A DNA stretch of 64,000 bases, from positions 15,858 to 79,857 of the forward strand of contig JBFMGO010000013.1 of assembly GCA_040752695.1 (NCBI GenBank), read 5' to 3'. The position numbers and the translations under genes were made by a program. Positions 12,848 to 64,000 of the stretch are shown here, piece after piece. Each line of letters opens with the position of its first letter. Position 1 is the stretch's first letter. The notes under the pieces are model-generated. The model saw nothing but the letters and a program-made list of their open reading frames with translations. It did not search any database and was not told the DNA's origin. Source of the DNA: a bacterium. Its GTDB lineage: Bacteria > SZUA-182 > DTGQ01.

Positions 12848-14920
12848 ATGTTCTCCTTAACAAGCATGTTTTCTTTCCGGAATATCTCTATTAAGCGCAA
12901 GCTCAACCTGATTATCATTCTCACCAGTTGGGTTACTCTGCTGGCTGCCTCGATAGCTTTCATGGCTAAAGACATTGTTACCTTTCGCCAGACACTGACC
13001 AACGATATCTCCAGTCTGGCGCAGGTTATCGGAACAAACAGCTCCGGCGCACTCGTTTTTGACGATCAGCACGCAGCAGAAGAAAACCTGTCAGCCTTAC
13101 ATGCCAAACCACATGTATTCTTCGCCTGCATTTACGACAAGAATGGTAAAGTATTTGCCACTTACTATCCTCGTAATCCTCACACCTCTCGTCAGGGCAT
13201 ACTGCCGCCAAAGCCGCAGAGAACAGGTCATTTCTTCGAAAACAATTACCTCTTTTTATTTCAGCAAATCTTCCTTGAAGAAGAGATGATCGGAACGATT
13301 TTCATCCAATATGACCTGGAGGAGATCAGCTCTCGAATGAAACAGTCTGGAGGTATCGTGGCCGGAATCATATCAGTGGCCTTTCTACTGGCTATGATGC
13401 TTTCATTTTTACTCCAGCGCATTATTTCCGAGCCGGTTTTAAACCTGGCACGGACAGCAAGGACTATTTCACAGCATAAAGACTATTCGATCAGGGCACA
13501 AAAGCACAGTCAAGACGAAATAGGGACTCTCATTGACGGATTTAACAAGATGCTGGCTGAAATCCAGGTTCGGGATAATGAACTGGAGCGTCATAAGGAA
13601 CACCTGGAAGAAGAGGTAGTCAAGCGCACAGCCGAGTTGGAAAGTCAGCGCAAGGAATTGCAGGATGCCTTAAGCCAGGCCGAACAACTGGCAATTAAGG
13701 CCGAAGCAGCCAACCGCGCCAAGAGCGAATTTCTGGCCAATATGAGCCATGAAATCCGCACGCCGCTGAACGCTATCCTCGGTTTTACGGATTTGCTCGA
13801 TTCTCTCATTGCTGATAAAAAGCAAAAAAACTATCTCGAAACAATCAAATCGAGCGGGAAGAGCTTGTTAACGTTAATTAATGACATACTCGACCTCTCT
13901 AAAATCGAAGCAGGTAAAATGGAGCTTCGGTATGAGCCTGTCAATCCCTATGCTATTTTTCATGAAATCAAGGATATCTTTTCCTTGAACATATCCCGGA
14001 AAGATCTTGCCTTTATCATGGACATTGCTCCTGATATTCCTGAAAGTCTCCTCCTGGATGATGTGCGCCTGAGACAAATCCTTTTTAATCTGGTGGGGAA
14101 TGCTGTAAAATTTACTGAAATGGGACAAATAAAACTCTCGGCCAGGGGAATTATGCAACAAAATGACCAAAATAGTATCGATTTAATGATAGCGGTAGAA
14201 GATACTGGAATCGGAATCGACCCCGAATCCCATGATAAAATATTCGAAGCATTCAAGCAGCAGGACGGTCAAGACAATAAGAGATATGGAGGGACCGGCC
14301 TGGGCCTGACCATCTCAAAACGGCTGGTTGAAATGATGGGGGGAACAATATCCGTTAAAAGCCAGGTAGCCAGGGGAAGTGTTTTTCAAATCATCCTGAA
14401 GAACGTACCGATCGCGACAACCGGCCGGAAGCATCAAACCGTTGAATGCTATCCGACCGGTGTAACCCATAAAGAAAAAGATAAAGCGTTTGACAGCGGT
14501 TATCTTCCCCTTGAAAAGGCAGGAGAAAGGGATGAGGGAAAAGAAACAACAGAGGAACCGGAAAAACTCCTGCCTGAAGTCCTGGCTAATTTCCCTGAAA
14601 TCATAAATAAACTGGAAAATGAACAGATGGAATCATGGACAGCAGCCCGTCAAAACGGGCTCTTCGACGACATTGCTCTTTTCGGCAATCAGATAAGAAA
14701 ATATGGTGATAAATATTCGATGAAGATTCTTCAACAATTCGGCGATGATCTAACCTTGCAAGTGAGCACTTTCGATATTGAAAAGATGATGGCCACCCTA
14801 AATTCCTATCCGGGATTGGTCGCCAAAATCAAATTATTATATCAGGAACAAAGTCAAGAACAGACTCAGGGACAAACTCAGGAACAAACTCGATTAAAAA
14901 CTCAAGGAGAAAAGCAATGA
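12848..14920 (+). CDS. Membrane sensor histidine kinase (YfiN-like periplasmic sensor, HAMP, HisKA, HATPase)
   Basis: Two TMs, HAMP ([14 protein letters not shown]), [27 protein letters not shown]; start could be 12824, 12848 or 12866. Confidence 0.93.
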
Positions 14921-57058: not shown

Positions 57059-58252
57059 TTGTCACATTTTCTTTTTATCTTTACTTTTTTGGCAATATAC
57101 GGCGGCATTCACGCTTATGCTTACAGCAAAGTACAATCTGCCTTCCATCTGACATCAGTCGCCCAGGCAGTTCTTCTGATGCTCATGGCTTTAATGGTAT
57201 CCGCTCCGATCCTGATCCATCTCCTCAACAAGAGGGGGCTGACGATTACAGCCCGCTTTGCAGCTTATCTGGGATTTACGTGGATGGGGTTTCTCTTCCT
57301 CTTTTTTTCGATATTTCTGGCAGCCGATCTCTATAACCTGTTGGCACGACTTGTCGGGACAGTCTTTCGGTACGATAGTGCACAATTTGCTTTAGCAGGA
57401 AGAAGCTCCTTTTTTCTCCTGGCCCTTTTGGTTGTGGCTGTGGGATGTTACAGTATTTTCGATGCTCAAAGGATCAGAACCGAAAGGGTAGTCCTTACCA
57501 CTTCCAAGCTCCCTGAAGGAGTCAAGCGTGTTACCATGGTCCAAATAACCGATGTCCATCTGAGTCCTCTGGTGAGCCGTCAATTTCTGGAAAAGCTCAT
57601 AGGGGTCATTCGTGATGCCGGGCCCGATATTCTGGTCTCGACAGGAGACCTGGTGGATATGGAAATCAGCCAGATAATGGACATGGCTGATCTATTCCAG
57701 GAGATTAAGCCCCGATATGGTAAATTCGCCATTATGGGCAACCATGACTTTTATGCAGGCATTGATGCGGCTATGGATTTTACCACACGGGCGGGATTCA
57801 GGGTTCTTCGTGGAGAAGGGATAACGGTTGCAGGCATTCTCAATATGGCAGGCGTCGATGATCATGCGGATGCCCGTTTCGGGCAAACGACAGTCCGCCG
57901 CACCGAGAGGGAGATTCTTGCTTCACTGCCGCAAGGCCCTTTTACCGTTTTTTTAAAGCATAGGCCGGACGTCATGGAGGATAGTACCGGACTTTTTGAT
58001 CTTCAGTTAAGCGGCCATACGCATGGAGGGCAGATTTTTCCCTTTACATGGATTATCCACTTCTTCTACCCGATGCAAAATGGATTATACACACTTCCTC
58101 CTCATTGTTATCTCTATACCAACACCGGAGCCGGAACCTGGGGACCTCCCATGCGCTTTCTTGCTCCGCCCAGGATTACGGTTATCGAGATAAACAACAC
58201 AGAACCAGAAGCGCACTATTTTCGTCTACCGGGTACAGGTTCCTACAGGTGA
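57059..58252 (+). CDS. Membrane-anchored metallophosphoesterase (YkuE-like)
   Basis: 4 TMs; DVH, GDLVD, GNHD, HRP, SGHTHGGQ, GTWGPPMR. Confidence 0.93.
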   Translation: MSHFLFIFTFLAIYGGIHAYAYSKVQSAFHLTSVAQAVLLMLMALMVSAPILIHLLNKRGLTITARFAAYLGFTWMGFLFLFFSIFLAADLYNLLARLVGTVFRYDSAQFALAGRSSFFLLALLVVAVGCYSIFDAQRIRTERVVLTTSKLPEGVKRVTMVQITDVHLSPLVSRQFLEKLIGVIRDAGPDILVSTGDLVDMEISQIMDMADLFQEIKPRYGKFAIMGNHDFYAGIDAAMDFTTRAGFRVLRGEGITVAGILNMAGVDDHADARFGQTTVRRTEREILASLPQGPFTVFLKHRPDVMEDSTGLFDLQLSGHTHGGQIFPFTWIIHFFYPMQNGLYTLPPHCYLYTNTGAGTWGPPMRFLAPPRITVIEINNTEPEAHYFRLPGTGSYR

Positions 58253-58566
58253 GTTACTATCCAGCTCATACTCACGATAAAAACGAGTACAGGCCTTAGA
58301 ATATCAAAATTATGCCTGGCTCCACGGATAGCATCATTAGCGTCCTGAAGCGGAGTACGGTATAATGACCTGATTACCCTGATATATGCCAAAAGAAACG
58401 ACCCGAGAGCGAAAAGCCACGCTAAAGCCGTTATATATCCATTGATTGCCAAATACCTGATACAATTATATAACATCAGCCACGAACCCCTCTTATATTC
58501 ACTCACTAACCATCTATTCATTTTCAACCGGCCCGCATCCCCCGATTGAAGGAAGGATACAGGCAC
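58243..58566 (-). CDS. possible small membrane protein
   Basis: ORF with two hydrophobic segments only; no recognised motif. Confidence 0.25.
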   Translation of the reverse strand: MPVSFLQSGDAGRLKMNRWLVSEYKRGSWLMLYNCIRYLAINGYITALAWLFALGSFLLAYIRVIRSLYRTPLQDANDAIRGARHNFDILRPVLVFIVSMSWIVTHL

Positions 58567-58864
58567 GACATCTCAACACTCCACCTTCCATCATATCTCA
58601 TATGGGGTGGAGATACTTCCCCCGTCCTCATCGCTCCTTCAGTGTCTTATCTGAAGAGCTAAAATAAAGAAAACTATTAACTCTGGTCGAGAATAGCACT
58701 ATACATAAATAGTATAGCCGGATGTTTACTTGAAAGTCAAACAAATTTGACCTGCAAAAAAATCAGGAAGAGATTCCGGGACCCAATTTTCTTAAAAATG
58801 ATATGACAAGGATTTTGGTTTCTTGTATAATATAAATACTTTTATGATATATCGAGGTACAAAT

Positions 58865-60922
58865 ATGAAAAGTAAAGCAAGACCTAAAAATCAATTTATA
58901 CCAGAAAAAACAGATGAAAAATGGACAGACTCACATCCCGGCCGGCTTCATGAACTGATGAAAGAGCAGATAGCCCGGTCTGAGGCAGTCAATGAACAAC
59001 TGAGGCAGGAGATTACCGAGCTCAGAAGGACAGAGGAAATACTGAGAATCAATGAAGAGAAATACCGCTCTTTATATTTCTCGATGAGCAAAGCCGCTGC
59101 CTTCCATGAAGTAATCTATGATCAGGCAGGCCAGGCTGTGGATTACATGGTGCTGGATGTTAACCCATTATATGAAGCCATGGTCGGATTGCAAAGAGAA
59201 ATGATCATCGGCAGAAAAGCATCCGAGATTTACGGTACTGACAGGGTGCCACACCTTGAAATTTATGAAAAGGTAGCTGCCACAGGACATCCGACTTCAT
59301 TCGAAGTGTTCTTCTCTTCACTGGGGAAATACCTGATTATCTCTGTCTTTTCATCCTGGCCAGGACGGTTTGCCACTCTGTTTACCGACATTACCGAGTA
59401 CAAACAGACAGAGGAGGCCTTAAAAGAATCCGAATCCGAGTACTCAAATCTGGTGAACAAGGCCAAAGATAGTATAGCCATTGTCCAGGAAGGGCTTCTT
59501 CAGTTTGTTAATGAGGCTGCGGAAAAAATGACCGGCCATACGGTCGAGGAGTTGAGAGGGAAACCGTTTCACGACCTGATAGCTCCTGATTACAGAGAAC
59601 TGATCAGCAGAAAACATACGCTGCTTCTTGCAGGCGCAGAACCTCCCTCCATCTGTGAGGCAAAACTGAAAACCAAAGACGGGCTCACCAGGGATGTGGA
59701 GTTTTCCGTCAGTATTATCCAGTATCATGGAAAGCCAGCCCTCATGGCTATCGTCCGTGATATTACCGAACGCAAGAAAATGGAAGAGGAATTACAAAGG
59801 ATTCAGAAGCTTGAATCCATCGGCACTCTTGCCGGAGGCATTGCCCATGATTTCAATAACCTGTTAACGGCCATCGGCGGCAACCTTTCCTTTGGAAAAA
59901 TGCAGGCCAAAGAGGAGAGCAGTATGTATGAAATATTGACCGAGGCGGAAAATGCATGCCAGCAGGCCAAAAATTTGACACAGCAACTCCTCACCTTTTC
60001 CAAGGGTGGCGAGCCGATCAAAAAAGCCGCATCCATCCCGGAATTGGTAAAGGATACGGTGAGCCTCGCCCTCTGTGGTTCTAAGGTAAAATACGAACTA
60101 TCCTTTCCGGACGATCTGTGGCAGGTTGAAATCGATAAGGGGCAGGTAAGTCAGGCTATCGGTAACCTGGTGATCAACGCAGACCAGGCCATGCCTGAGG
60201 GCGGTGTAATCAGCATCAGGGCTGAAAATATGATGGTTAGGGAAAATAATAAATTATCTCTCAAGGGCGGCAGGTATGTAAAAGTGTCCGTAAAGGATCA
60301 GGGAGTCGGCATCCAGAGCGAGCATCTCCAGAAGATATTCGACCCCTACTTTACCACCAAACAAAACAGAAGCGGTCTGGGACTGGCCACCGCCTATGCC
60401 ATTATCAAAAAACATGCAGGATACATTACCGTAGAGTCGAGGGTGAAAGGCGGAACAACCTTCTCTCTTTTTCTTCCCGCTTTAGACGAACAGACCCAAG
60501 GGGTGAATGTCCCGGTCAAGGAAAAGCTCTTCCACGGCCAGAGGAAAATTTTATTCATGGATGATCAGAAGATTATCAGAGATATGGTAAGGAGGATGCT
60601 GGCTCATTTAAAATATGAGGTTGAACTGGCCAGCGATGGCCATGAGGCGGTAGAGTTGTTTAAGAAAGCAAAAGCATTAAAACAGCCTTTTGACGCCGTT
60701 ATCCTGGACTTAACCATTCCAGGCGGACAGGGAGGCAAGGAAGCCATCCAGATACTGCGTGAAATAGACCCCCAGGTGAAGGCCATTGTTTCAAGCGGCT
60801 ATTCAAATGACCCGGTGATGTCCGACTATAAACGCTACGGCTTCAGCGGAGTGGTTGTCAAGCCATACGACTTTGCAGAATTGACTGAAGCGCTATCCAG
60901 GCTGATAAGCAGCCGACCATGA
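58865..60922 (+). CDS. Cytoplasmic hybrid histidine kinase (2 PAS, HisKA, HATPase, REC)
   Basis: PAS domains ending DITE, AHDFNNLL, NADQAMP, GLGLA, REC DLTIPGG. Confidence 0.95.
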   Translation: MKSKARPKNQFIPEKTDEKWTDSHPGRLHELMKEQIARSEAVNEQLRQEITELRRTEEILRINEEKYRSLYFSMSKAAAFHEVIYDQAGQAVDYMVLDVNPLYEAMVGLQREMIIGRKASEIYGTDRVPHLEIYEKVAATGHPTSFEVFFSSLGKYLIISVFSSWPGRFATLFTDITEYKQTEEALKESESEYSNLVNKAKDSIAIVQEGLLQFVNEAAEKMTGHTVEELRGKPFHDLIAPDYRELISRKHTLLLAGAEPPSICEAKLKTKDGLTRDVEFSVSIIQYHGKPALMAIVRDITERKKMEEELQRIQKLESIGTLAGGIAHDFNNLLTAIGGNLSFGKMQAKEESSMYEILTEAENACQQAKNLTQQLLTFSKGGEPIKKAASIPELVKDTVSLALCGSKVKYELSFPDDLWQVEIDKGQVSQAIGNLVINADQAMPEGGVISIRAENMMVRENNKLSLKGGRYVKVSVKDQGVGIQSEHLQKIFDPYFTTKQNRSGLGLATAYAIIKKHAGYITVESRVKGGTTFSLFLPALDEQTQGVNVPVKEKLFHGQRKILFMDDQKIIRDMVRRMLAHLKYEVELASDGHEAVELFKKAKALKQPFDAVILDLTIPGGQGGKEAIQILREIDPQVKAIVSSGYSNDPVMSDYKRYGFSGVVVKPYDFAELTEALSRLISSRP

Positions 60923-61429
60923 ACACCATTTCCTCATAGGTAGTCTGCAAATACTACAGAGCGGTTTTCCAGTGCTCAGCCCTGAATCTCATTTCAATTC
61001 CTGGTAGGTAAGCTCCATTTCTTATGCTCATCATTTCAATTCCTGACAGGTAAGCGTCATTTGTAATGCTCATGGTGGTGGACGGCAGTCCATACCGGCT
61101 TGAACGAATCTGCGTGGACAAAGCACTTCAAGCGCTGGCAGAACAGCTCATTACTACGGAAAAGCAATTACGGAGAAGACAAATCCGATTCCTTATAGGT
61201 ATACTCCTAAAAATTTCTAAGACAAGCATCCGGTGATGCCGCTTTTCCAACCTTAATTTCAATTCCTTTCAAGGTATGCTAAAAGCCGGAACGAAAGCTG
61301 CATTCTGCTGCGGCATGCGTTCGGTTATCACGCCTTTTGTCATCGGTCCTCGTAGGTATGCTGATCATGGCACTGTTGGCCACCTGTATTTATCACCTGG
61401 TTTCAATTCCTTATAGGTTCGGCTCGGTT
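60923..61429 (-). CRISPR. Degenerate type I-B CRISPR repeat cluster (7 clear plus 1 vestigial repeat)
   Basis: About 30-bp repeats resembling RTTTCAATTCCTnnnAGGTAnGCT on + at 60923, 60991, 61033, (61125), 61182, 61256, 61339 and 61400; they end in ATTGAAAY on the minus strand; adjacent to cas5. Confidence 0.8.
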
Positions 61430-61496: not shown

Positions 61497-62273
61497 TCAT
61501 ATAAAAACAATATCCGTAGTCTGCCCATCATCCGATGAAACAGCGGCGTATTCTTTCAAGTCAGCCTTGAATGGCTTGCCGGATCTTTCATAGATAAGGT
61601 TAGACACTTTCCAGAGCTCCCTGCCCTGTTTAAAAGCAATCGGCATACGATCCTTTACGAAATGGCAGCCTTCGGAGGCAAGGAAATCGATTCCCTGATG
61701 GCCTAACTTTTCCACATTCACCACTGATGAAACCTTTTCAGCCATACCTTTTTTCATATCGTACTTTTTTTCTCCTCTGTAGTGAAAACCGGCAATAAAT
61801 TCCGAGATTCCCAGGTAAAGAGGATAAATACTGTAATCGCTGGCCAGTTGATGCTTCAGACTCCTCATGACGGCCTCATCCGCATGTTTGAAATAGATAC
61901 GGTAGGTAAGGCTGTTGCCCTCTTCCGATGAAAGCACAACCTCCAGCGGCACCTGGTAGGGAACCCTTGATCCCCGGAGAAACCGCACCAGAATGCTTTT
62001 CGGGCTCGAAAAATCATTTTTATTGGTACGTACGTAATTTATTGTCTGCATGATCTTACGCACGGGCTGCTGCACGGATACGGAGATCATTGTTCTTTCA
62101 GGTGACAGGAAATCATAATAATTATCCTTTTCGATACCGAGAATGGCACCGATCACCCCGCGAACGACTGTCGGGGGGGGGAAGTCATAGGTCAGTGAAG
62201 AGGAGTTGGTATAAAATTTTTTGAAATGGGCTAATTTTCCAATAAGGTCGAATACCAGCAGGCTCTGTGTCAT
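61497..62273 (-). CDS. cas5: Type I-B Cas5
   Basis: FDLIGKLAHFKKFYTNSSSLTY.FPPPT...G..GAILG, YPLYLGISEF; GGAGG RBS before ATG 62273. Confidence 0.93.
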   Translation of the reverse strand: MTQSLLVFDLIGKLAHFKKFYTNSSSLTYDFPPPTVVRGVIGAILGIEKDNYYDFLSPERTMISVSVQQPVRKIMQTINYVRTNKNDFSSPKSILVRFLRGSRVPYQVPLEVVLSSEEGNSLTYRIYFKHADEAVMRSLKHQLASDYSIYPLYLGISEFIAGFHYRGEKKYDMKKGMAEKVSSVVNVEKLGHQGIDFLASEGCHFVKDRMPIAFKQGRELWKVSNLIYERSGKPFKADLKEYAAVSSDDGQTTDIVFI

Positions 62274-62351
62274 TGTTCCCTCCGGATCTCTCGTTGGTCT
62301 TAACGCACAACGCCAAACTCCTGCGCGTCTTATCATATCCTGACTCCTGCA

Positions 62352-63314
62352 TCAAGCACCCATGAATTCTATCTTATCGTGGAAATAATCTCCTCCTCCC
62401 CAGCCTGAGATTTTTAAATCAGCGTGTTGCCAGAACAATATCCGGGATATCTTGGAGATCTGTTTTTTCAACAGGCAGCTCAGCCGGGTTACATCGAGAT
62501 GAAAATCGGCAATGCTTCTCAGGCCGTCTGTTTTATCCAGAACGATCTGATCCCGCAGGTCTCCAAGGAAGGTCTGGTTGTCTTTATATTCCACTCTGAT
62601 ATACAGGCGGGGAGTCTGGCCGATCTTGCTCCTGGTTGTAGCCTCCAAAGGTATGGATCTGATTATCGATTCATCGAAAAGCAGAATATCATCTTTATTC
62701 AGGCTGGTTCTCTCCGCCCTTCTGGCACTGATAATCCCGTGGAAGGCGATCAGTGAATAATATACCCTCCAGTCCTTCCCGATGGCACCTTGAGCTTTTT
62801 CAGCTTCAGAACTGAAATGCGAAGTAATGGAGCTGGAATCGAGCAACTCCACCCTGTTCAGGGAATACCCCCAGTTAAACTGGATAGGACCGGTAAAGGT
62901 TGCCGAGGCTCCTGCACCTTCCTTGGCCTTGATAGGCATGGTAGCTCCAAAAAAACGAACATCGACTAACTGTGAAAGGAGCCAGTTGATATGTTTTCTT
63001 TCCAGCTTGGTCAAATTCAGGTTGCGGGAATAATCGTTTTCCTGGCAGGCGAGAAATAACATCTCCAGCCTTTCGGTAACACTGAGCGCTTTATTGTCCA
63101 CCTTGGCTACGAAGATGTCCTGGCCCCTGTAATCCTGGAGGTAATCTCTGATGTATCTTTTCAGCCGGACATCGCTCACCAGGTTCCTCGATGATTCATA
63201 ATCCATGCGGGGCTTGTTCTCGTCGTCAGGATCACCGTTCGGATTTGTCTGTCTGGCATCATAAATAAACAGAATGTCGCTGTTTTGAGTTATCAGGTTA
63301 CTTGGAATATCCAT
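62352..63314 (-). CDS. cas7: Type I-B Cas7 (Csh2)
   Basis: NPNGDPD.ENKPRMD, VSDVRLKRYIRDY, DVRFFGAT, TGPIQFNWGYSLN, TRSKIGQ.PR. Confidence 0.95.
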   Translation of the reverse strand: MDIPSNLITQNSDILFIYDARQTNPNGDPDDENKPRMDYESSRNLVSDVRLKRYIRDYLQDYRGQDIFVAKVDNKALSVTERLEMLFLACQENDYSRNLNLTKLERKHINWLLSQLVDVRFFGATMPIKAKEGAGASATFTGPIQFNWGYSLNRVELLDSSSITSHFSSEAEKAQGAIGKDWRVYYSLIAFHGIISARRAERTSLNKDDILLFDESIIRSIPLEATTRSKIGQTPRLYIRVEYKDNQTFLGDLRDQIVLDKTDGLRSIADFHLDVTRLSCLLKKQISKISRILFWQHADLKISGWGGGDYFHDKIEFMGA

Positions 63315-63331: not shown

Positions 63332-64000
63332 TTACTCTTCCGTATTCTTAGACATGATCTTATTTGTCCTGTAGGCATAACCGGACAAGATGTAGAACAC
63401 ATTCTGCTGAGGGCTCAGGGTCCAGCCAGTGATCCTCTGGTCGAGCAGTTTTTTTACTCCGGCAAACATTTTTTCGTTTTCGGGAGATAACCTTCCATAG
63501 TGCAGTAACCTGGAAAATACTTCATTGGTGAACCTGATCAGCATCTCTTTACTCATTCCCTGAAAAGGCAGCTTTTCAAGAATCGGTTTATTCTTGATCC
63601 TGGCATTGAACTGGGCACTGCCAACTTCTCCGGTTAGAATTCCCAGTCCAAAAAGCGCCACCTGCTCTTCATCGTAGTTCATCTCATGAATATAGGTCTG
63701 GATCTCTTCGGGAAAATCCATCAGCCGAATATCTGTCATTTCTCCCCTTTCCCCTTTCAGCGTACCTAACCTGTCCAAATAGAGAAGCAATAAATTGGAC
63801 TTCAGTATGGAGGCAACTAAAGCCTGATCACCATTTCCATCTTTTCCGAGGTTGAACTGCTCTCCCTGATCACAGCGGCAGACTTTGGCAAGCCGGATGA
63901 ACTGCTGAATCAGGAAGGCATGCTCTACCTTCCTGCCGGTGAAAATTGCATCGTAAAAAGCAAGGATTTTTTTAAACTCATATGGGTTCTTTTTCCTGTC
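63332..64000 (-). CDS. cas8b: Type I-B Cas8b (C-terminal part; 5' end beyond the window)
   Basis: Frame open from 64000 (DRKKNPYEFKKIL...); C-terminus ALF.LG.L.GEVG.AQ...KPILEKL.FQGM...NVFYILSGY; directly upstream of cas7. Confidence 0.85.
   Translation of the reverse strand, partial: DRKKNPYEFKKILAFYDAIFTGRKVEHAFLIQQFIRLAKVCRCDQGEQFNLGKDGNGDQALVASILKSNLLLLYLDRLGTLKGERGEMTDIRLMDFPEEIQTYIHEMNYDEEQVALFGLGILTGEVGSAQFNARIKNKPILEKLPFQGMSKEMLIRFTNEVFSRLLHYGRLSPENEKMFAGVKKLLDQRITGWTLSPQQNVFYILSGYAYRTNKIMSKNTEE

Follow-up and report, generated by a model that had tools for sequence, protein, structure and literature searches.

What is a type I-B CRISPR-Cas effector complex (Cascade) kept for once the components required for immunity have been lost? 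The question is raised by a locus in the 64-kb window analysed here, the whole stretch of DNA under study, which belongs to a bacterial genome (G000) with an assembly completeness of 96.6%. Between the stop codon of cas5 (61497, minus strand) and that of a converging kinase gene (60922, plus strand), the interval 60923-61429 contains seven repeat-like motifs; on the minus strand they follow cas6, cas8b, cas7 and cas5, in that order, a type I-B effector set. We consider it likely that this degenerate mini-CRISPR provides three or four guides resembling CRISPR RNAs (crRNAs) to a Cascade of Cas6, Cas8b, Cas7 and Cas5 that has neither Cas3 nor adaptation proteins.

Repeats, handles and guide seeds

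Read on the minus strand, the motif consists of ACCT, a loop of 3-4 nt and AGG, followed by AATTGAAAY, against which the handle of each copy was scored (maximum 9/9). A first-pass annotation of this DNA had listed seven copies of CCT-loop-AGG with the plus-strand loops CAT, GGT, GAC, TAT, TTCA, CGT and TAT, and all seven are present as described. Its handle calls were equally accurate: the handle is intact in the copies ending at 61400, 61256, 61033 and 60991, and lost in the remaining three (Table 1). The cluster of motifs is far from chance. TTCCTNNNAGGT has five exact matches in the window, all inside 60930-61418, and RTTTCAATTCCT occurs four times against 0.02 expected, in every case in the array region; allowing one mismatch in TTCCTNNNAGGT gave 26 matches against 15.8 expected, which is uninformative. 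A search of the window against Rfam returned no family matches.

The cas operon and the motifs are common to four species: that of the window, two further genomes of the same genus (G001 and G002) and a metagenome contig (L052), with three more contigs near-identical to G001. In each, the motifs come after cas5 and the kinase gene converges on them, adjoining the array in 4/4 species, and the upstream neighbours of the operon differ from species to species. The locus is vertically inherited through a genus. Between species, cas6, cas7 and cas5 have a non-synonymous divergence (pN) of 0.09-0.20 and a synonymous divergence (pS) of 0.55-0.78; on these figures the genes are under strong purifying selection and their synonymous sites are saturated. 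Any non-coding 11-mer common to these species is therefore under selection.

The seeds of the guides, that is their first 11 nt, have been retained in just this way. Counted per position over 18 species pairs, guide positions 1-5 and 8-10 are identical in 18/18, position 7 in 16/18, position 11 in 15/18, position 6 in 11/18 and position 12 in 4/18; further along, positions 13-23 are identical in 2-11 of the 18 pairs and position 24 in 12. Variable columns number 7/8 at positions 6 and 12, the two that Cascade flips out, versus 2/40 at positions 1-5 and 7-11 (Fisher p 3.7e-6), although these pair counts and the test overstate independence because the four lineages are related, two pairs of them being sister species, which counts against the reading proposed here. 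The dependence on position is plain even so. At positions 13-24, 44/48 columns vary. The suggestion in the annotation that the first 11-12 nt are the working part of each guide, with position 6 free, is thus supported as a pattern of conservation.

The individual guides follow the same scheme. S1 is found in G000, L052 and G002 and is missing from G001; its positions 1-5 and 7-11 are the same in all three species that have it, positions 6 and 12 differ, and the remainder has diverged. The first 11 nt of S2 are the same in 4/4 species, position 12 being A in three of them and G in G001. S3 is likewise present in 4/4 species; L052 departs from the others at position 6 and G002 at position 11, and at position 12 each species has a different base. 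These are the three guides that had been proposed for the window, and their strings and lengths (31, 44 and 38 nt) are exact, but the number is probably four. The additional candidate, S4, has a start that also follows a handle in L052 (differing at positions 6 and 12) and in G001 (differing at position 7); it is not found in G002. This behaviour in the relatives is what makes S4 probably a guide in its own right. Guide lengths across the species range from ~20 to ~48 nt.

Conservation of the handle tracks the presence of a guide. Among the 23 repeats listed across the four species, the handle scores 9/9 in 14/14 repeats that precede a guide and 2-7/9 in 9/9 repeats without a guide after them, while CCT..AGG is kept in 22/23 and the loops differ. 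The terminal repeat is degenerate in 4/4 species. The annotation had argued that such a pattern is the work of selection on single-guide cassettes rather than of neutral decay, and the comparison supports this: the handle is kept only where a guide follows, the seeds are fixed although the synonymous sites of the cas genes are saturated, and an intact cas6 stands at the head of the operon. Where the annotation went too far was in describing handle-bearing and handle-less copies as alternating. Its calls of intact and lost are right, but the order is not strictly alternating, because the copies ending at 61033 and 60991 form a 42-bp tandem duplication and both keep the handle.

The cassettes appear to have arisen from a more ordinary array. 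In G002 the order is repeat, S1, repeat, S2, repeat, S3 and degenerate repeat, a compact, ordinary-looking array without inserts in which every inner repeat is shared by two guides. Unrelated inserts divide the array of G000, L052 and G001 into separate cassettes, and the repeats thereby left without a guide have lost the handle. The cassette layout is a derived state, since G002 has the same guides in a compact array with shared repeats. The inserts are not conserved even in the closest pair, G000 and L052.

Three side observations concern the inserts and flanks of the arrays. An open frame of 56 codons crosses the insert between cassettes on the opposite strand (window 61066-61236, plus); it is probably no gene, because L052 shows no conservation of this insert. 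The insert between S4 and the repeat before S3 contains, in the G001 lineage only, five copies of a GCGGCAAGAG-like motif at ~40-60 nt spacing (L020:10700-10940). The same lineage has a repeated element of ~130 nt, resembling a miniature inverted-repeat transposable element (MITE), with one copy separating cas5 from the first repeat and another inserted upstream of the kinase gene.

The effector operon, its setting and a proposed mechanism

Pfam profiles for all four effector genes, Cas_TM1802 (cas8b), Cas_Cas7, Cas_Cas5d and Cas_Cas6_C, find their matches in the operon. Contig C13, from which the window derives, ends inside cas8b and contig C94 carries on, the N-terminal part there matching Cas_TM1802 at 1.3e-66. 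Against the intact Cas8b of G002, the two pieces align to residues 431-647 (73% identity) and 1-425 (62%), and the break (window 64000 / C94:1) is therefore an assembly gap of ~5 codons. Cas7 shares 75-76% identity with its G001 and G002 orthologues (pN 0.14-0.15 versus pS 0.64-0.77), and the Cas5 orthologues in G001, G002 and L052 are 66-79% identical. Neither HNH nor any other nuclease domain was detected with Pfam in Cas5 or Cas8b.

Neither cas3, which encodes the helicase-nuclease that marks type I systems, nor cas1, cas2 or cas4 is present at the locus. In the G000 assembly as a whole, the Cas3_HD profile had no match and tblastn with five I-B Cas3 proteins from related loci found none, although at 96.6% completeness a cas3 may lie in the missing part; PF22590, the Cas3 C-terminal profile, is too unspecific as a marker, as it matched in 14/14 control genomes. 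The loss of cas3 in this lineage is derived, because cas3 follows cas5 in distant relatives: of 69 distant cas5 loci examined, the open reading frame (ORF) directly after cas5 was run through Pfam for 35, and Cas3 domains were found in 35/35. G004, of the same family as G000 and another genus, has cas5 followed by cas3 and also carries an array of 37 copies of a 37-nt repeat with GGATTGAAAC at its end. When the whole G000 genome was scanned by k-mers for a canonical array, coding repeats alone came up, and the core repeat plus handle recurs outside the locus as just two lone, chance-like matches.

Other CRISPR-Cas genes do occur in these genomes. A lone pair of cas1 (402 aa) and cas4 (189 aa) lies on G000 contig C6 at ~62.6-64.6 kb (L005:8638-10595, minus), between genes for large secreted proteins and with no cas2 match, effector genes or array nearby. 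G002 has a complete type I-E locus on C41 (L226:11958-18926) and, on C10 (L234:8906-19000), a cas3-led locus with a 34-repeat array that is apparently I-C, judged by gene sizes. G001 carries a type III-A (Csm) locus on C144 (L227).

Upstream of the operon, and divergent from it, are genes for a sigma-54 activator and an HDOD protein. On the other side, the kinase gene likely starts at ATG 58865, an ATG that is conserved with L052 along with its ribosome-binding site. A sigma-70-like ATGACA-17 nt-TATAAT at 58803-58831 is conserved in the four species, as read by eye from the alignment. Divergent from the kinase gene is a small conserved ORF for a membrane protein of ~85-107 aa (window 58243-58566, minus; L019:13318-13575; L020 ~13960-14230), whose TTGACT-17/18-TATTAT-like promoter is conserved and after which comes a converging gene for a calcineurin-like phosphoesterase; this block is syntenic in 4/4 species.

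Table 1. Features of the array, the cas operon and the kinase region (window coordinates unless a contig or locus is named)
Feature	Position	Strand	Remarks
cas8b, C-terminal part	63332..64000	-	Pfam Cas_TM1802, 1.5e-42; continues on contig C94:2-1330
cas7	62352..63314	-	Pfam Cas_Cas7, 2e-60
cas5	61497..62336	-	Pfam Cas_Cas5d, 6e-08
Repeat R1, AATTGAAAC	61400..61422	-	handle intact, 9/9; orthologous repeat in G002/L052 begins at cas5 stop codon
Guide S1	61369..61399	-	first 11 nt = CAGGTGATAAA
Repeat R2	61339..61361	-	stem kept, handle lost (3/9)
Repeat R3	61256..61279	-	handle intact, 9/9; 4-nt loop
Guide S2	61212..61255	-	first 11 nt = TAAGGTTGGAA
Repeat R4	61182..61204	-	stem kept, handle lost (6/9)
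Repeat R5	61033..61055	-	handle intact, 9/9; first copy of the 42-bp tandem duplication
Candidate guide S4	61013..61032	-	begins GATGAGCATAA; follows R5 handle
Repeat R6	60991..61013	-	handle intact, 9/9
Guide S3	60953..60990	-	first 11 nt = GAGATTCAGGG
Terminal repeat R7	60923..60945	-	stem kept, handle lost (5/9); adjoins stop codon of converging kinase gene
Hybrid PAS histidine kinase with receiver domain	58823..60922	+	Pfam HATPase_c, HisKA, PAS, Response_reg; converges on array
Divergent promoter region, kinase gene / small membrane-protein ORF	58700..58865	.	candidate target zone, weak in G000
~130-nt MITE-like element	L020:10300-10440 and 13400-13530		duplicated in L053:1310-1590

In the mechanism that we infer, the minus-strand transcript of the cas operon would read into the array; such co-transcription is likely because the cas5 stop codon of G002 and L052 is the very point at which their first repeat begins. 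Cas6 would cut every repeat 8 nt before its end, and the processed RNA would then carry ATTGAAAY as its handle, followed by a guide and by the stem portion of the repeat that comes next. Cascade loaded with this RNA would recognise DNA through ~10 bp, corresponding to guide positions 1-5 and 7-11, beside a protospacer-adjacent motif (PAM). With no Cas3 the complex could only bind DNA, which makes a transcriptional repressor the most likely role, as for the CreA and CreR RNAs discussed below. More tentatively, and as a possibility rather than an expectation, the whole I-B Cascade may have become a domesticated transcription factor, chromosomal, inherited vertically and equipped with several guides, whose three or four fixed 11-nt seeds direct it to host promoters, the promoter of the adjoining kinase gene among them. 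It would then form a natural multiplex CRISPR interference (CRISPRi) regulon and be neither an immune system nor the self-regulator of such a system.

Candidate targets and rival explanations

The promoter matches sharing one PAM that the annotation had proposed looking for did not emerge from seed searches of G000, G001 and G002 with position 6 left free. For the S2 seed, counts came close to those of reversed-pattern controls; S1, S3 and S4 gave higher counts, most of the matches lying in coding sequence. Among the intergenic matches, the PAM leads ACT, TTA and CCT did not hold up. Also discarded was a pair of 13-nt TAAGGCTGGAAAA copies 120 nt apart (G000:C19:65916-66048), which agree with S2 except at position 6, sit at the end of an ORF and just after it, and have no counterpart in the relatives. 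Whole guides compared with their own genome gave nothing better than E 0.14. Full-length matches to mobile elements, which the annotation had named as the mark of ordinary old spacers, did not occur when the array was compared by BLAST with 50,697 phage and 72,556 plasmid records (best E = 0.5). That best value belongs to the interior of S2 (window 61224-61245, outside the seed), a 22-nt exact match to the unannotated record 'Bacteriophage sp.' MT838277.1 that is compatible with chance. Separately, G002 contains at least three copies (L024, L033 and L039; contigs C2, C10 and C12) of a conserved element starting TAAGGATGGAAGAA and continuing into CCCGCAGAGACGCA, in which an S2-like seed happens to lie.

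Of the leads, the best comes from G002, where S2 has a match of 13 nt that is flanked by TTA and ends 5 bp short of the -35 box of the kinase promoter, on its upstream side. The corresponding zone of G000 has an S3-like site with a mismatch at position 8 (GAGATTCCGGG at 58770-58780, plus, on the strand opposite to the G002 S2 site), and L052 has a TTA-flanked S3-like site with a mismatch at position 11 in codons 11-14 of the kinase gene. Within this zone, the best match to a seed of the species' own guides has no mismatch in G002 and one each in G001, G000 and L052, with shuffled-seed probabilities of 0.006, 0.23, 0.14 and 0.16, respectively. A joint mismatch sum of <=3 was reached in 0/3000 shuffles, a score that provides a lead only, because the zone was chosen after the matches and the G001 and G002 sites are orthologous. 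The TTA flank agrees with the YYD PAM of the T. maritima I-B system, in which, as described in PMC13199841, a mismatch at position 6 has no effect and whose Cas8b gives the same Pfam family its name; the AAC/AAT at the repeats here also resembles the repeat-adjacent AAC of that system. Two further S2 sites are common to G001 and G002 only and absent from G000; one of them, flanked by TTA, lies upstream of a gene for a secreted protein, and the other falls on the ribosome-binding site of a gene resembling radC.

Several results weigh against reading the guides as functional regulators. No seed target is common to all species, and genome-wide seed matches are at chance level. Seed matches are also missing from the conserved cas6 promoter and, even with one mismatch and wobble, from inside or beside the four arrays, so neither a CreR-type circuit nor a cis-acting CreTA-type circuit is supported. 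At the kinase promoter, the S2 site is exact in G002 only, has a mismatch at position 7 in G001 and is absent from G000 and L052, and S2 is conserved in 4/4 species all the same. The hairpin proposed in the annotation stands as far as conservation of CCT and AGG is concerned, but the CCU/AGG stem is unstable by itself: its 3 bp form no stable hairpin alone, shuffled sequences fold as well as the seven 40-nt segments do (z -0.51 to +1.48) and the stem is present in the minimum-energy fold of 1/7 segments. Short stems of this kind are held in place by some Cas6 enzymes. S4 may be no guide but what is left of the 5' half of a long repeat in an ancestor. Finally, the Cas3-less operon coexists with ordinary CRISPR-Cas systems in G001 and G002, where there may be cross-talk.

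The main rival to functional regulation of host genes is addiction to Cascade through toxins that have gone unrecognised. Here the cassettes would be antitoxin RNAs of the CreTA kind, silencing small toxin RNA genes, and the locus a selfish remnant in which Cascade is kept since its loss would free the toxins. The cassette layout and the seed-only conservation are as in two-repeat creA genes (PMC8501985), purifying selection on the Cascade genes after the loss of cas3 would be explained, and the variable inserts between cassettes could conceal small genes. Set against this, the matches missing from the arrays are missing too from 17-18 kb around three of the loci and 8.4 kb around L052, the inserts are unconserved between G000 and L052, and G002 has none. 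The toxin may be of a form that is not recognised, and overall we regard addiction as unlikely. Ordinary immunity, with the guides as old spacers against mobile elements and Cas3 supplied from elsewhere, is very improbable. The cas3 genes of G002, in its separate type I-E and apparently I-C loci, and the lone cas1-cas4 pair of G000 could be invoked in its favour, but G000 has yielded neither an I-B-type cas3 nor a canonical array with this repeat, the phage and plasmid records gave nothing above the level noted earlier, and the same guides are kept across species without turnover and only in their first 11 nt.

It might also be supposed that we are looking at a dying array beside a decaying operon, as the degenerate repeats, irregular spacing, loss of cas3 and the adaptation genes, 42-bp duplication and inserts would suggest. 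This neutral account is scarcely credible: in three or four species the four cas ORFs are all intact and have a pN well below pS, conservation of handle and seed that is specific to position cannot be neutral where synonymous divergence is saturated, and protein identities of 65-82% speak against a very recent transfer of the locus. Least plausible of all is RNA-guided transposition, in which the guides would serve the homing of a type I-B CRISPR-associated transposon (CAST). Cas3-less I-B Cascades with short arrays are indeed known in Tn7-like transposons (PMC12669027; bioRxiv 10.1101/154229), but the genes flanking this one encode a sigma-54 activator, an HDOD protein, a kinase and a phosphoesterase, none of them for transposition, and the downstream flank is syntenic in four species. 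A search for TniQ gave nothing, a weak negative as its controls gave no match either.

Whichever of the first two explanations applies, the locus bears on what Cascade can become. Known crRNA-like regulators (CreA, CreR and mini-array RNAs) act within complete immune systems, which they protect or tune; here the immune parts are lost, yet selection has kept Cascade, Cas6 and the fixed seed-only guides while at least four species diverged. Should the guides regulate host genes, the locus would be a clear natural case of CRISPR machinery converted in full into a programmable repressor. If they silence hidden toxins, addiction can keep Cascade long after immunity has been lost. On either reading, evolution has defined minimal guides (an 8-nt handle, a 10-bp address and a short Cas6 site) to go with a four-gene effector.

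Relation to known systems

The closest parallel is CreA of the CreTA modules of Haloarcula hispanica and Halobacterium hubeiense (PMC8501985, PMC9458426). The type I-B gene creA is a mini-CRISPR of two divergently degenerated repeats, the first of which keeps the 8-nt 5' handle and the second the 3'-handle part (PMC8501985), and the present cassettes likewise combine divergent degenerate repeats, an upstream handle and a downstream Cas6-binding part. In CreA RNA, the guide pairs at positions 1-5 and 7-11 with promoter DNA next to a PAM, and positions 6 and 12 remain unpaired (PMC8501985). The same positions appear to do the work here, judging by the pattern of conservation, and the effector is again a I-B Cascade. 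It is because this signature of CreA and CreR is present by conservation alone that we read the guides as functional crRNA-like RNAs. Unlike CreA, the array strings together three or four guides, and neither a toxin gene that can be recognised nor a promoter matched by a seed adjoins it; unlike the hosts of CreA, ours is a bacterium and has no Cas3, adaptation genes or canonical array.

The same mode of repression is exerted on cas promoters by CreR and further mini-array RNAs (bioRxiv 10.1101/2023.03.10.532045; PMC10120712). These too are degenerate repeat-like elements in cas loci whose crRNA-like RNAs act through short seeds, and the type I-B CreR-like elements are enriched near cas6 (PMC10120712). 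In contrast, the present locus has several guides and no seed match at the cas6 promoter, its array stands after cas5, in the place of a canonical array, and with Cas3 absent there is no immune function to balance. The small RNA s479 of Haloferax volcanii, which affects zinc-transporter genes (PMC8155600, cited in PMC10120712), is similar in being a crRNA-like RNA from a type I-B locus that is tied to the regulation of host genes other than cas. The Haloferax system, however, is complete, with Cas3 and arrays, and the RNA is a single one, whereas here the whole locus appears to be given over to non-cutting guides.

Cascades without Cas3 are known from several derivatives of type I, comprising transposon-borne, HNH-fused and Mu-associated forms and an incomplete I-C that is a possible 'DNA binder' (PMC12669027, PMC10910872). 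CAST I-B2 and I-F3, the HNH-fused I-E2 and I-F4, CasMu-I and the incomplete I-C have in common with the present locus a Cascade lacking Cas3 and adaptation together with a short array. They differ in that transposase genes and HNH or other nuclease domains were not detected here, and in that this locus is chromosomal and syntenic across a genus, with guides conserved in the seed only. A chromosomal Cas3-less I-B of this kind was not met in the available parts of PMC12669027 and PMC10910872 or in the literature searched, supplements aside. Overall, sequence comparison suggests that the signature is of the CreA/CreR kind already known, and that it is the setting, Cas3-less, multi-guide and vertically inherited, that differs.

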